The translations under genes and the position numbers were made by a program. From the sequence record PZ445465.1: a stretch of 46,037 bases of DNA; one strand, written 5' to 3'. Shown here piece after piece: positions 6,890-45,404 of the stretch. Every line of letters starts with the position of its first letter. Positions within the stretch are counted from its first letter, which is position 1. Origin of the DNA: a phage. The notes beneath the pieces were generated by a model. The model searched no databases. It saw only the letters and a program-made list of their open reading frames with translations, and was not told where the DNA came from.

Positions 6890-6920
6890 CAATCTACGTC
6901 AATAGCCATTGTGATAGAAT
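6890..6920 (+). promoter_or_regulatory. promoter region for the lysis genes: motif CAATCTACGTC plus extended -10-like TGTGATAGAAT
   Basis: motif at 6890-6900; TGTG-ATAGAAT at 6910-6920; strong RBS AGGAGG and ATG 6947 downstream; region is divergent toward the leftward cassette. Confidence 0.4.
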
Positions 6921-9700: not shown

Positions 9701-9749
9701 CATCTTGACGTTTCTACATCACTTAGTCAATACTTATTGACGTAGATTG
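9701..9749. promoter_or_regulatory. divergent regulatory region with inverted motif copies
   Basis: GTTTCTACATC (9710-9720) and TTGACGTAGATTG (9737-9749, reverse orientation) between divergent gene starts 9677 and 9777. Confidence 0.4.
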
Positions 9750-18505: not shown

Positions 18506-18552
18506 TTGTTGTTTCTACGTCACTAACTATAAACGCACCATCAATCTACGTC
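18506..18552. promoter_or_regulatory. divergent promoter/operator region
   Basis: GTTTCTACGTC (18511-18521) and CAATCTACGTC (18542-18552); plus-strand TTGTTG-N16-TATAAA (18506-18533); lies between divergent gene starts 18485 and 18602. Confidence 0.45.
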
Positions 18553-35202: not shown

Positions 35203-36144
35203 TTATAAATTAAACTGTTTTTTGAACCATTCAGGCGTTTCCATTTCTATGACAGGATTACCCATTGAATAACCGGGCCACGAATTGGCTTTTTTGCACG
35301 CCTTGTAAATTTCCATAGCGCCATGCAACTGAATTCGACCGATGCGTAATTGCTCTTCAGTCAAGCGAATTAACGCAGGAATAAATGGTGCTTTCTTTTC
35401 CTGAACGAGAAGATTAACAGAGCGTGGCGCATGACCATATGCCGCAACAAACATGTCGTGCTGCATCGCCATTTTCATAAAGTACCCAAGTCTCGCAGCA
35501 TGACGGAAAAACTCTTCTGGCTTGGCGCTCACCGCTGTTTTGTAGTCGATGATGTCGCCACCTTTGGTAAGGCAGTCAAAGCGAACTTTTGCCTTCTCTC
35601 CGTTAATTTCACCTAGAATTGACACTTCAGCATAAGCACCAGCGAGAAGACTGCTGTAATAGCTGTTTGCGTGGATTACAGCACGCATTTGCTGAATAGC
35701 GTCATAATCACCACCTTCCAGCATTTGCTTTCCTACAGCAGCTTTTTCAGCCTCTTCACGGATGACATCGTAAATTTTCACTGGCTCGCCAGTCGCCTGG
35801 ATGATTTTGATCACCTCAGCTTTCGACTTTCCTGAAAGTCCTTTGATGCCTCGTTCTTTTGCCCATGAGTTCATATCACTTACAGTAACAAGCAGGTCAT
35901 CACCAAAATCTTCTTTGGTTGGCATTCGTGCATATTCAGCATCAAAACGCTCTGGTTCAAGCAACGCAGTATGGCTACCTGTACCGAATATAAGAGCTTT
36001 TGATTGCTCATCCTCTTCGTCTTTGTATCGCCATGCTGCTGGGCATCTGTCAAGTATATTCCATAATCCAGAGCCATTAATATGCTCTGTGTCTGCGTGG
36101 TAATCTTCATTACTGAGTTCATTATTGAAATAGACTTTCATCAT
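35203..36144 (-). CDS. PD-(D/E)XK-type recombination exonuclease (putative)
   Basis: DCLTKGGDIIDYKT motif; neighbours SSB and ATPase. Confidence 0.55.
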   Translation of the reverse strand: MMKVYFNNELSNEDYHADTEHINGSGLWNILDRCPAAWRYKDEEDEQSKALIFGTGSHTALLEPERFDAEYARMPTKEDFGDDLLVTVSDMNSWAKERGIKGLSGKSKAEVIKIIQATGEPVKIYDVIREEAEKAAVGKQMLEGGDYDAIQQMRAVIHANSYYSSLLAGAYAEVSILGEINGEKAKVRFDCLTKGGDIIDYKTAVSAKPEEFFRHAARLGYFMKMAMQHDMFVAAYGHAPRSVNLLVQEKKAPFIPALIRLTEEQLRIGRIQLHGAMEIYKACKKANSWPGYSMGNPVIEMETPEWFKKQFNL

Positions 36145-36770
36145 CACTCTCCGTGGTTACAGAATTCTTTATGCATCTTTTCTCTGAATTTCATCACAGA
36201 CAACCTCGCTCTCTCAATATCATTGAATAACCCAAGATGGTATCTTTTCCCGTTAACATCACAGTAAGCCTGCCACTTTTTAACCTGTTTTTGCCAATAC
36301 ACACCTTTAACTCCTGATGTGTTATTTTTTGGTTTTTTAGCGTTATACTGGTTCTGCATATTTGTTGCGATTCTTAAGTTGCAAATCCTGTTATCGTCAC
36401 GCACGCCGTTAATGTGATCAATTTGACCTTCAGGCCAGAAACCATAATAAATCAACCATGCCAAGCGATGCGCGTAGTATCTTTTATTATTTATGCTTAT
36501 CTCTATGTATCCGTTATGTTTTTTCCTGCCAGCGACACTACCCTTTCTTATACCTCCACCCGTCTTATTTCTAATGAAAACCCCCGTTTCAGGGTTGTAA
36601 TTTAAGCTATCCAAAACAACATCACGTGGTATTCTTTTTCTTCCTCCTATGGTGTTTGACTCTGCACTTCCCTGAGCAAAATCTTGCTTTTGCAGTTCCG
36701 ATAAACTCATTTCCACAAACCTCGCACTTCTTAACGGTGATAGCCATTTCTTATCCTCTATTGTAATCAT
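36144..36770 (-). CDS. HNH homing endonuclease with AP2-like DNA-binding domain
   Basis: HNH-type His/Asn core (YAHRLAWLIYYG...IDHINGVRDDN) and C-terminal SGVKGVYWQKQVKKWQAYCDVNGKRYHLGLF AP2-type segment. Confidence 0.65.
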   Translation of the reverse strand: MITIEDKKWLSPLRSARFVEMSLSELQKQDFAQGSAESNTIGGRKRIPRDVVLDSLNYNPETGVFIRNKTGGGIRKGSVAGRKKHNGYIEISINNKRYYAHRLAWLIYYGFWPEGQIDHINGVRDDNRICNLRIATNMQNQYNAKKPKNNTSGVKGVYWQKQVKKWQAYCDVNGKRYHLGLFNDIERARLSVMKFREKMHKEFCNHGE

Positions 36771-36815
36771 TTACCGTTACATTGCAAGTAACTTTTATTT
36801 GTTACTAACGATACA

Positions 36816-37241
36816 TTAATCTACGTCATCCAGCAAGCCAAAATAGAAAAGTGTGGCTTTTTTTAGTTCATCAAGACCGTAAGCGATGGCTGCATAATGA
36901 CCAAGCCTGCACATCTCTGTTAGAACTGCTGATTGATCCTTGCTCACTCTGCTCTTACTTTTGTCACGGCGCTTTGCCTCAATCATTCCGCAGCAGTGGT
37001 TCGCACCCGGAGTCATTATTACGTTATCGCCTATTCCAGGCTTAACCCCCATCTTCTGGCGCTTCAGTACGAACTGGACGCGGCTGGATGTTCCTGTTTC
37101 ATTCGGGACGTGAAACCATAGCACATCAGGGAAACAGTGTTGCATCCATGTACCGTAACCCATCTGGTCAGTCTCCTCTTTTGGGCATTCGCCGCGATAA
37201 CCGCTATCAAATACCCATATACCGCTATCAAGCTGCTTCAC
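36816..37241 (-). CDS. VRR-NUC domain nuclease
   Basis: GMIEAKRRD motif; start assigned to GTG 37241 after AGGAG; no in-frame ATG near the 5' end. Confidence 0.6.
   Translation of the reverse strand: MKQLDSGIWVFDSGYRGECPKEETDQMGYGTWMQHCFPDVLWFHVPNETGTSSRVQFVLKRQKMGVKPGIGDNVIMTPGANHCCGMIEAKRRDKSKSRVSKDQSAVLTEMCRLGHYAAIAYGLDELKKATLFYFGLLDDVD
36817..36827. promoter_or_regulatory. TAATCTACGTC motif upstream of the HNH gene
   Basis: copy of the recurrent motif in the short spacer between the VRR-NUC stop and the HNH start. Confidence 0.3.
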
Positions 37242-39165
37242 TTTGTTCTCCTGCAAAATCTTTTCTATGGATTATGTCGCGACCTTTATCATTAATGCGA
37301 TGAGTGATGCGTTTTGGCGCTTTAATCAATCCAGCATACATCATGAACTGCTTAGCATTCTGGCATTTCAGGATTTTCCCCGCCATTGACTTATCATCAA
37401 GGTGAGGAAAAATAGCCTTTGCCTTGAACATGTTTTTCATGTGAGTCGCACCGCCATATGGGTAGAAAACTTCGTTAGCCCAGCCTTCTTTGCCATCACA
37501 ACGATTAATCCAGTAGCGATACAAAATACCTTCTCCATCCTTTGTTAGCTGGACTTTGAAATCAATAACATCAGCCCACTCATTATCGGTATACGCACGC
37601 TCATTCAGTGCCGCATTCGGGTCGCGCAACACGTGATCGCAATGCCGGCAATAGCGCGCCGTTGGGTCGTTTTTAGTGCCGCATCCATCATCAAAAATCC
37701 GTATTCCGTGCTTATCAAAACCGCAACGAATATAACTGAAAAACTCCTCGCAGCGACCATCTGGCGACAATGCATCTTTGCCAATGCATCGACGCGCATA
37801 TGGGCTGTTCATTGTTCCACATGTATGACACGGAACTTGTTCGCCACTGCGTTTTGAACGTTGCGCTTCAGCTTCTTCCAGAATTGGGTCTTCATATAGC
37901 TGACCAAGCTCAAACATCGTGCCTGAGAAATCAAGAACCAGATGGTTTTCTTTATGATACCCGGCGTCAATTTGGTCTTTCTTCAGCAGTCGCATTCCGC
38001 GACCAAGCAACTGAACAAGAAGGGTGAGCGACATTATTTTTCGCAATATAACGCTTGTATCCCATAGCGGGATGTTTACGCCGGTCGTCAAGCAACCAAT
38101 TTGGAAAACATATTTAATCTTGCCAGTGTATGCATCCTTTAATGCCTTGCGTCTGGCTTTCTGTCCCATATCTTCGGTGACGATCGCATAACTTCCTTCA
38201 GGTAGGTATTTTGCCGCCTCCTGACAGTGCTTCTTGCCAGCGCATGTAATCAATACGCCGTTTCTGTTTTTTGTCAGCTCCATAACCTTGAGCATGATTT
38301 TCTGCGTGAGTGTTCCTTGCTCAAGGATTTCTTTCTGCATCTGCTTGAGTTGCTCGGTGGTAAATTCCTGAACTCCATCACTTCCTGACGCCTCAAATGC
38401 TGACAGGTCGTAATGCAGATCATCAATATCATGAAGACCAAAAATTGTAGGGACAAGAAAGCCATTATCAACAAGGTATTTGGTATCAATATTTATTATT
38501 TCATGCTTCCAGTAAGAACCCTTAATTGACTCAGTTCCACGAAATGGGCTGCCAGTGTAGCCAATAACAATGACATCGTGTCCGTATTTAGCTTTGCACC
38601 TACGGTTAAATTCGGTCATTATTACGCCGTACTGTGTGTCTGAATCTTCTCCAACAATATCCTCCCAGTTCACTTGATGGCACTCATCAACCAAAATATA
38701 TCGTGGGCAAAAGTCTGAAAGTGCACACTTTGAGATAACATTGCCTGATTCATCCTTTATGTCGAAAAGTGAGTTTTTTATTGTTCTCTCCGTCCCAGCA
38801 ATAAGCGGGTATGCCGTTGACTTTCTGCCAAGAGACGCGCTGAAAAGTGAGTTTTTAACACTCAGATTCCATAGCTCTTCCGCATCCTGCTCAATAATTT
38901 CCCCCTGTCTGGCAATAACAAGGCCTTCCCACCCCATATCCTGAAAGCGTCGCGCAATCATGGCAATCATAATGGTCTTTCCAGCACCTACAGATGCCGT
39001 CACAAAACTTGGCTTAGGGTCTTTGCCAAACTTGCGGATAACTTCAGCCGTCTTTTCATAAACCAGCCACTGATATGGTCGCGGCTCAATCTCACCCGTA
39101 TGAACAACTGACCGCAATTTGTCTATATCCAATTCAGCAATCATTGCGTCTATTTTATGCGTCAT
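37228..39165 (-). CDS. SF2 DEAD/DEAH-box DNA helicase with C-terminal zinc-ribbon region
   Basis: Walker A GAGKT, motif II DECH, multiple CxxC pairs in the C-terminal third. Confidence 0.8.
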   Translation of the reverse strand: MTHKIDAMIAELDIDKLRSVVHTGEIEPRPYQWLVYEKTAEVIRKFGKDPKPSFVTASVGAGKTIMIAMIARRFQDMGWEGLVIARQGEIIEQDAEELWNLSVKNSLFSASLGRKSTAYPLIAGTERTIKNSLFDIKDESGNVISKCALSDFCPRYILVDECHQVNWEDIVGEDSDTQYGVIMTEFNRRCKAKYGHDVIVIGYTGSPFRGTESIKGSYWKHEIINIDTKYLVDNGFLVPTIFGLHDIDDLHYDLSAFEASGSDGVQEFTTEQLKQMQKEILEQGTLTQKIMLKVMELTKNRNGVLITCAGKKHCQEAAKYLPEGSYAIVTEDMGQKARRKALKDAYTGKIKYVFQIGCLTTGVNIPLWDTSVILRKIMSLTLLVQLLGRGMRLLKKDQIDAGYHKENHLVLDFSGTMFELGQLYEDPILEEAEAQRSKRSGEQVPCHTCGTMNSPYARRCIGKDALSPDGRCEEFFSYIRCGFDKHGIRIFDDGCGTKNDPTARYCRHCDHVLRDPNAALNERAYTDNEWADVIDFKVQLTKDGEGILYRYWINRCDGKEGWANEVFYPYGGATHMKNMFKAKAIFPHLDDKSMAGKILKCQNAKQFMMYAGLIKAPKRITHRINDKGRDIIHRKDFAGEQSEAA

Positions 39166-39180
39166 AGCTACTAACCTTTG

Positions 39181-39221
39181 TTGATGTTTCTACGTCAGTT
39201 AGCTTATACTCAATCTACACC
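39181..39221. promoter_or_regulatory. divergent promoter/operator between helicase and primase
   Basis: TTGATG-N18-TATACT on the plus strand with GTTTCTACGTC (39186-39196) inside the spacer; CAATCTACACC at 39211-39221. Confidence 0.45.
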
Positions 39222-39240
39222 AACAATCAAGGGTCAATTT

Positions 39241-45371: not shown

Positions 45372-45404
45372 TCCGCCTTGTGCGGGTTCTTTTTTATCTA
45401 CGTC
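45372..45404 (+). promoter_or_regulatory. weak terminator-like hairpin followed by TTATCTACGTC motif upstream of terS
   Basis: CCGC-CTTGT-GCGG plus T-run (45373-45395); motif at 45394-45404. Confidence 0.3.

Follow-up and report, generated by a model that had tools for sequence, protein, structure and literature searches.

The HNH-AP2 endonuclease gene of a phage, read from the longest open reading frame (ORF) at positions 36144..36770 on the minus strand of sequence record PZ445465.1, raises the question of where such a gene begins and what the sequence in front of its conserved part encodes. The record is 46,037 nucleotides (nt) long and is referred to in its entirety as the window. Alignment of loci with and without the nuclease delimits an inserted cassette of about 670 base pairs (bp) (36144..36815, minus strand), which holds a promoter, a zinc-ribbon leader gene and the HNH-AP2 gene. 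The leader gene, 41 codons at 36622..36747 on the same strand (MAITVKKCEVCGNEFIGTAKARFCSGKCRVKHHRRKKKNTT), is unannotated and overlaps the nuclease ORF in another frame. Judged from its sequence and its modelled fold it is a real gene, and the arrangement of an overlapping zinc-ribbon gene within a promoter-dyad-leader module, in fixed +1 relation to its cargo, appears to be undescribed. A literature search for a frameshift or an upstream ORF in homing endonuclease genes returned nothing relevant.

A zinc-ribbon gene overlaps the nuclease

The zinc-ribbon gene covers codons 9-49 of the 208-codon nuclease ORF, which is open throughout in the window, and the first 26 codons of a shorter nuclease ORF (36144..36710, minus strand; 188 amino acids, aa) that starts at an internal ATG at 36710 and lies in the +1 frame relative to it. 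We regard it as real because it has a Shine-Dalgarno (SD) sequence (GAGGA at 36758-36754, giving GAGGA-N6-ATG), four invariant cysteines, a lower proportion of nonsynonymous (pN) than of synonymous (pS) differences in 17 of 17 pairs, and a confidently predicted fold. Read in the +1 (nuclease) frame, the same bases give pN equal to or above pS. The AlphaFold2 model of the 41-aa peptide is a beta-hairpin plus helix with a mean predicted local distance difference test (pLDDT) score of 88.5. Its best fold neighbour is YacG (4tma; TM-score by query, TMq, 0.71-0.75, with a non-significant E-value), and an FCS zinc finger (2w0t) is also among the nearest folds (TMq ~0.7, E likewise non-significant). 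At the level of sequence profiles, the Pfam treble clef DUF2116 matches the peptide with E=7e-4, and the NCBIfam YacG model matches weakly (E=0.077). Conservation of the gene extends over both enterobacterial and Vibrio phages, whose cargo is unrelated, and tblastn located it in 75 phage records, with an annotation found in one alone (LPST10_00001).

These results bear directly on the gene model found in databases, in which a plain 208-aa HNH protein is read from ATG 36770, as in Bas78 and Bas79, and the zinc-ribbon ORF is open by chance. The 208-codon frame is indeed open in the window, in Bas78 and Bas79, and in lineages L010 and L015. However, purifying selection acts on the zinc-ribbon frame and not on the 208-codon frame, and the zinc-ribbon peptide has a confident fold that is kept across phages with unrelated cargo. 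ATG 36770 is an unlikely start because it lies inside the spacer of the cassette promoter, and the 5′ extension that it would add (36711..36770, minus strand) is probably non-coding: stops break it in L009, a 1-nt deletion disrupts it in NX263, and the unrelated HNH cassette of L011 also has a stop in the equivalent 5′ region of the +1 frame. Taken from these sequence comparisons, ATG 36770 is probably the wrong start, and the database model as a whole is very improbable. The earlier note on this DNA had given the gene as 36144-36770, a description whose 5′ boundary is probably wrong.

A promoter, a dyad and the zinc-ribbon gene form a portable leader

The cassette carries its own predicted sigma-70-type promoter, TTGCAA-N16-TACAAT (36760..36787, minus strand), with the -35 element at 36787-36782, a 16-nt spacer, and the -10 element at 36765-36760, ending 12 nt upstream of the zinc-ribbon ATG. 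An operator-like dyad, TGTAAC-N9-TTACA (36762..36781, minus strand), lies in the spacer of this promoter, and the -10 element takes in its right half. Thirteen lineages with differing cargo keep the pattern TTGnnn-n-TGTAAC-N8-GTTACAAT, in which a GTAAC-N8-GTTAC dyad stands between -35 and -10 and its inner bases co-vary; the same geometry with co-varying inner bases is seen, for example, in L014, L016, L020, L048, L069 and L071. In the window, the promoter and dyad give a single match, and a search of the window for a second copy of the zinc-ribbon leader or its promoter found none. A second inverted repeat, AGTAAC-N8-GTTACT, lies at 36806-36787 (minus strand). In some lineages (L054, L083, L114) the zinc-ribbon ATG is only 5-6 nt past the -10 element. 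With the ATG so close to the -10 element (36745-36765 in the window), the messenger RNA of the zinc-ribbon gene may be leaderless or almost so, and the GAGGA of the window may then lie at or before the transcript start.

The leader is found with varied cargo in enterobacterial, Aeromonas and Vibrio phages and in metagenomes, and the cargo directly downstream is an enzyme that cuts, modifies or recombines DNA. An automated census yielded 47 unique leader-cargo combinations, in which long cargo was defined as an ORF that runs across the zinc-ribbon stop and has 120 codons or more. Long overlapping cargo occurs in 40 of the 47 and falls into seven unrelated clusters; all 40 are in the +1 frame. 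Cargo of the leader is not confined to nucleases, because the leader also precedes a methyltransferase, a TAGT-family gene and a Phage_integrase-domain gene. In L054, the zinc-ribbon leader at 1498-1644 is followed by a C5 DNA methyltransferase at 1678-2442, and in L071 the leader at 1501-1635 is followed by the TAGT-family gene at 1678-2850; neither cargo overlaps, and the gaps are 34-42 nt. The Phage_integrase-domain gene of L067 (615-1193) overlaps its leader (461-622) by 8 nt, and one further cargo overlaps by ATGA in the +2 frame. Based on these sequences, the promoter, dyad and zinc-ribbon gene together are a portable leader module with at least seven unrelated cargo families.

The zinc-ribbon gene is an independent gene, because it stands alone before non-overlapping cargo and no fusion was found. 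In-frame fusions of zinc ribbon and nuclease were absent from GenBank phages, IMG/VR, metagenomes and a set of 5.8 billion proteins; the last search returned zinc-ribbon ORFs of 44-85 aa only. Only ribbons of a broader class, C..CG..F...CS..C, are found in frame, within unrelated larger proteins.

Entry into the nuclease frame

The opening 23 residues of the 188-aa ORF show no conservation and are modelled as disordered, and there are two principal ways, both in keeping with this, in which ribosomes could reach the nuclease frame. The reading that we favor, and consider probable from the sequence comparisons, is that of two separate overlapping genes, with the nuclease started at the internal ATG 36710. 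This ATG is preceded by GAGG-N9, and HC6, NX263 and CHRF_10034 are annotated from the equivalent codon. Nearly all lineages with long overlap have one +1 ATG or GTG among zinc-ribbon codons 8-16, the exception being L069, which has its own ATG near the zinc-ribbon stop instead. The start is formed at three different codon pairs (GAT-GAA, AAT-GAR and TAT-GGA), and in L019, L020 and L077, which use an AAT-GAR or GAT-GAA ATG, the tyrosine at the TAT-GGA position is written TAC. Stops in the +1 frame are common in zinc-ribbon codons 1-6 and none follows the internal ATG. If synonymous codons were drawn at random, an ATG plus an open frame would arise with a chance of 0.2-0.66 per lineage, and the product of these chances is ~0.002 over 6 lineages, or 0.03 over 3 sites. 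An SD-like tetramer moves along with the internal ATG (GAGG-N9-ATG or GGAG-N9-ATG), lying 6-9 nt upstream in most lineages. The shared +1 frame of the 40 long overlapping cargo ORFs also counts in favor of an internal start, as does the fact that elsewhere the zinc-ribbon gene evidently works alone. Two other candidate starts were tried and rejected: re-initiation at the zinc-ribbon stop of the window, where the adjoining ATG and GTG are in the +2 frame, and a TTG 9 codons before LNYNPETG, which is TTA in Bas79 and CHRF_10034.

Several observations weigh against an internal start. The peptide between ATG 36710 and the lysine run shows no detectable selection, which is equally consistent with its not being translated; the pN/pS test that found none in the +1 frame does not separate an internal start from a frameshift. 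In L024 the internal ATG reads ATA, while the nuclease is otherwise intact. Although no nuclease lies downstream of the leader in L071 and L054, both still have the +1 ATG and the open frame, so these may be a by-product of the zinc-ribbon sequence. Finally, the frame under selection turns from 0 to +1 exactly at the lysine run (36648-36634), and a frameshift fusion would look alike.

A programmed +1 (or -2) frameshift on the lysine run would produce a minority fusion of zinc ribbon, HNH and AP2 domains, the rest being free zinc-ribbon protein. Beyond the switch of the selected frame and the missing ATG of L024, this explanation draws on the +1 relation of all 40 overlapping cargo ORFs, on the leaderless members of the nuclease family, which begin at the lysine run, and on other HNH families (PHROG 1271 and 15471) that carry similar zinc ribbons in frame. 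The sole candidate site for a +1 shift, AGG AGG AAG AAA AAG (36634..36648, minus strand; zinc-ribbon codons 34-38), resembles that of prfB, with an SD-like AGGAGG, a 3-nt spacer and a slippery AAA-A. Every lineage without an ATG of its own near the zinc-ribbon stop has a codon context of AAA plus A or G, and at zinc-ribbon codon 34 most lineages have AGG or AGA, which are rare codons. However, no stimulator is common to all lineages, what recurs is only the trivial AAA with A or G after it, and close relatives show AGGTGG, AGGCGG or AGGAAG for AGGAGG. L048 has no lysine run or even a lysine codon ahead of the first conserved motif of the cargo body. An ordinary ATG with an SD-like sequence is on offer in nearly every lineage, and the zinc-ribbon gene evidently works alone in front of non-overlapping cargo. 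To our knowledge, +1 slippage on AAA-A without a slow codon in the A site is not an established efficient signal. Compared with recognized frameshift pairs, then, the fixed frame relation was found here, while a conserved slippery site or stimulator, fused relatives, and the lack of an ordinary start (L024 excepted) were not. We consider the frameshift unlikely, and the probability left beside it and the internal start falls to a mix of both or to something else.

Two candidates for a universal frameshift signal were rejected, and so was transcriptional slippage. AGGAGG is limited to part of the clade to which the window belongs; a rare AGG at zinc-ribbon codon 34 is frequent, yet the codon is CGT in L019 and CGA in L047; and for transcriptional slippage the A runs, of 3-7 nt, are too short.

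Insertion sequences offer a precedent for a frameshifted arrangement. In IS1 (InsA/InsAB′) and IS3 (OrfA/OrfAB), much as is proposed for the cassette, a small DNA-binding protein is encoded upstream of an overlapping, out-of-frame enzyme that cleaves DNA. The small protein, a zinc finger in the case of InsA, acts at the promoter from which it is expressed, and the change of frame falls within a stretch rich in A. By analogy, the leader could be a portable two-frame module in which the free zinc-ribbon protein represses the promoter and a conserved +1 (or -2) shift in the lysine run makes a little of a zinc-ribbon-nuclease fusion as the active, targeted homing enzyme, a proposal that we find doubtful, a shade more so than the frameshift by itself. 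The insertion sequences make a transposase through a proven -1 shift on A6C or A6G, whereas here the enzyme is an HNH nuclease, a +1 shift is needed, no conserved signal was found and a normal start is available. If the two-frame module were true, programmed +1 frameshifting would gain a new class, spread over at least seven unrelated nuclease families in enterobacterial and Vibrio phages.

A possible scheme for control of the cassette

Under the favored reading of two separate genes, the zinc-ribbon gene (36747-36622) would be translated from its own ATG as a separate protein, and the nuclease would begin at ATG 36710 as a protein of 188 aa, with a disordered N-terminal tail of 23 residues that is not under selection. 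Nuclease levels would be held down by ribosomes on the zinc-ribbon ORF together with a weak internal start. The simplest reading of the zinc-ribbon protein is that it autoregulates the cassette by binding the dyad in its own promoter, binding that we infer because the protein is small and basic, is encoded 5-20 nt past a -10 element that forms half of the dyad, and is always directly upstream of a DNA enzyme.

Such a role would be analogous to that of the controller (C) proteins of restriction-modification systems, in which a small regulator gene likewise stands immediately before the gene of a DNA enzyme that may be toxic. There, the promoter of the regulator gene holds a dyad operator and the leader is very short; the conserved dyad of the cassette is a candidate operator of this kind. 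C proteins have a helix-turn-helix fold, however, while the peptide here is a predicted treble-clef zinc ribbon plus helix, and we therefore regard it as an analogue and not as a member of that group. A protein-binding role like that of YacG may be an alternative to autoregulation. The DNA gyrase inhibitor YacG (4tma, 1lv3) and FCS zinc fingers (2w0t) have the C..C...FCS..C spacing in common with the peptide; however, the gyrase-binding C-terminal tail of YacG is absent, and a basic helix, RVKHHRRKKK, is found instead.

If a promoter, an operator, a small zinc-ribbon regulator and an out-of-frame cargo entry together make the leader a self-contained control module, the safe levels of toxic mobile nucleases and DNA-modifying enzymes would be accounted for. 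The module would also provide a searchable signature for cargo genes of this kind, would set right a systematic start-codon error in this gene family, and would constitute a compact regulated expression cassette.

The HNH-AP2 nuclease

The identity of the nuclease is supported by both sequence and fold. Pfam HNH_3 matches aa 98-141 of the 208-codon ORF (E=1.3e-16, 60.4 bits; curated cutoff 24.8), marking a catalytic domain at 36348..36479 on the minus strand (HRLAW...IDHINGVRDDNRICNLR...NQYN) in which all family-invariant residues are present. Pfam AP2 matches aa 152-201 (E=9.5e-6, 26.3 bits), under its curated cutoff of 33.3, and the corresponding domain at 36168..36317 (minus strand) is clear by fold, with matches to 1gcc, 7et5 and 3igm. 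The ORF also matches PHROG 99, 'HNH endonuclease', with E=3e-73. More than 1000 homologues were found at E<=1e-3, many with both Pfam domains recorded, and PF00847 is on record for many of them. They are typically 156-175 aa long, and 30 of the 53 aligned homologues begin at residues 24-35 of the 188-aa ORF. In a 54-sequence alignment, the invariant residues H81, H99, N101, D106, N107, R108, N111, R113, N120 and N123 are all kept in the window protein.

An AlphaFold2 model built with 53 homologues in the alignment has a pLDDT of 88, with residues 24-188 (numbered in the 188-aa protein) above 90 and residues 1-23 below 50. The top fold neighbour in the PDB is the homing endonuclease I-HmuI (1u3e; Foldseek probability 1.0, 96 aligned columns, root-mean-square deviation (rmsd) 3.1 Å). 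The AP2 part, with strands at 137-140, 145-152 and 155-162 and a helix at 165-183, forms a three-stranded sheet on a helix like that of the plant AP2/ERF protein AtERF1 (1gcc; probability 1.0, rmsd 1.4 Å over 47 residues), and it also matches the plant AP2/ERF domain 7et5 with probability 1.0. As far as can be told from sequence and model, the ORF is an I-HmuI-like HNH enzyme, with predicted catalysis and a C-terminal AP2 domain. The earlier note had named an HNH endonuclease with an AP2-type tail, and both domains are recovered by sequence as well as by fold.

Taken alone, the nuclease is of an ordinary kind, since phages commonly carry HNH-AP2 homing genes and this one already has the label 'HNH endonuclease' in GenBank relatives. 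Such enzymes were reportedly described by Magnani et al. in 2004. The phage and cyanobacterial HNH-AP2 endonucleases share the domain order (HNH_3, then AP2) and the size of the window protein, and the clade of the window differs from most of these 156-175-aa members in the leader with its overlapping zinc-ribbon gene. AP2-HNH phage genes are also mentioned in PMC2248197 and PMC1524935. The I-HmuI, I-HmuII and I-BasI group has a beta-beta-alpha-metal core like that of the window protein, shares with it the motif HRL...DH.[DN]G..DNN...NLR, and likewise consists of mobile nucleases borne by phages. I-HmuI, however, lies inside a group I intron and ends in a helix-turn-helix, while the window protein is free-standing and ends in an AP2 domain. 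A PDB sequence search with the cassette proteins gave marginal matches at most, I-HmuI among them with E=0.14.

A variable insertion between conserved neighbours

The cassette is bordered by the stop codon (TAA, 36818-36816) of the upstream gene and the start (ATG, 36144/36141) of the downstream gene, and the nuclease stop (TGA, 36146-36144) shares one base with that start. Downstream lies a DUF3799 PD-(D/E)XK exonuclease (35203-36147, minus strand; Pfam E=5e-25). Upstream lies the gene at 36816-37256 (minus strand), which matches Pfam VRR_NUC at E=0.21 and 12.1 bits, belongs to PHROG 824 (function unknown) and has a D...EAK motif that fits a PD-(D/E)XK nuclease. Of the placement previously given, between an exonuclease and a VRR-NUC gene, the first neighbour is thus confirmed and the second label is plausible but unproven, with a weak match.

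The region of the window, which comes from a Skatevirus-like siphophage, is 98.8% identical to Escherichia phage SandraMuster_Bas78, a small siphovirus of that type in the BASEL collection. Among 89 related GenBank phage records, the nuclease ORF is present at this junction in 7. In Vi II-E1 and SB28 the junction is a 25-52-nt spacer with no HNH gene, in ZCEC08 it holds a 276-nt ORF and in LPSTLL a 177-nt ORF. CHRF_10034, which has the nuclease, and SB28, which does not, are filed under one species, and the former has 670 bp in place of 33 bp; the sequences on either side show 94.2% and 95.6% identity. Decay is also seen: the HC6 nuclease (L005) has its catalytic His99 replaced by Tyr and reads IDYING, the L025 copy has a frameshift in the AP2 part, and L024 has lost the internal ATG. 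As a further variant, the Bas78 copy (L001) reads INC instead of ING. In the window the gene is intact. Its variable presence at a single site with conserved neighbours, together with the decayed copies, agrees with the prior suggestion of a mobile insertion at a locus that varies among relatives. These comparisons support a free-standing, mobile homing endonuclease gene carried by a minority of otherwise collinear relatives. On co-infection, the nuclease would cut or nick HNH-less relatives near the junction, and repair of the cut relative would copy the cassette in.

It could also be that the nuclease is no longer selfish, having been domesticated for exclusion at co-infection or for initiating recombination beside the exonuclease, or that it is an inactive remnant. 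The gene is situated in a recombination/replication module, relatives carry the decayed copies described above, and nuclease genes that mark boundaries of genetic exchange in phages are reported in PMC10448857. However, the window copy retains every invariant catalytic residue, and the gene is missing from ~90% of relatives and is therefore not needed for growth. Exclusion and homing are, moreover, not mutually exclusive. On balance, loss of the homing role is improbable, though less so than the database gene model.

The free-standing seg and mob genes of T4-like phages resemble this cassette in being intergenic insertions that are present or absent in close relatives and decay in some lineages. 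Free-standing homing genes of T4 are regulated by RNA hairpins and late promoters. Unlike in T4, regulation here seems to rest on the overlapping zinc-ribbon gene and the operator-like dyad.

Across cassette subtypes (Bas79, CHRF_10034), the leader (36622-36815) and the last ~60 nt of the nuclease gene (36144-36200) are near-identical, but identity drops to ~75-80% in the middle of the gene. Within the terminal ~60 nt lie the ribosome-binding site and start codon of the exonuclease. From the near-identical ends and diverged middle it follows that either the ends are constrained or the bodies have been swapped by recombination.

A second site is used by related cassettes. In most relatives, among them Vi II-E1, Skate, SB28, LPSTLL and swi2, a zinc-ribbon leader with a nuclease lies at the divergent helicase/primase junction, which is empty in the window (39165-39178; region 39165-39240). 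Among the records examined, a leader at the exonuclease junction and a leader at the helicase junction are mutually exclusive. Two direct repeats of the leader around the helicase gene might be unstable.

A backbone promoter motif upstream of the cassette

The earlier note had pointed to a copy of a promoter motif directly upstream of the nuclease. The repeat is real: the motif GACGTAGATTA (GACGTAGATTR) has 6 copies in the window with at most one mismatch, against 0.34 expected, at 1470-1480, 6890-6900, 9739-9749, 18542-18552, 36817-36827 and 45394-45404. It is, however, not part of the insert. The copy at 36817-36827 (minus strand), which reads ATGACG, belongs to the phage backbone because it lies within the end of the upstream gene, spanning its last codons and stop, and is kept in relatives without the HNH gene. 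The motif is the -35 part of backbone promoters of the form TTGACGTAGATTG, which from their sequence appear to be a phage-specific class in which conservation continues past the -35 element. A -10-like hexamer follows the motif by 17 nt at 6890 and 18542, and the shorter GTAGATT also occurs at 39218, 43300, 21696 and 23487 of the window.

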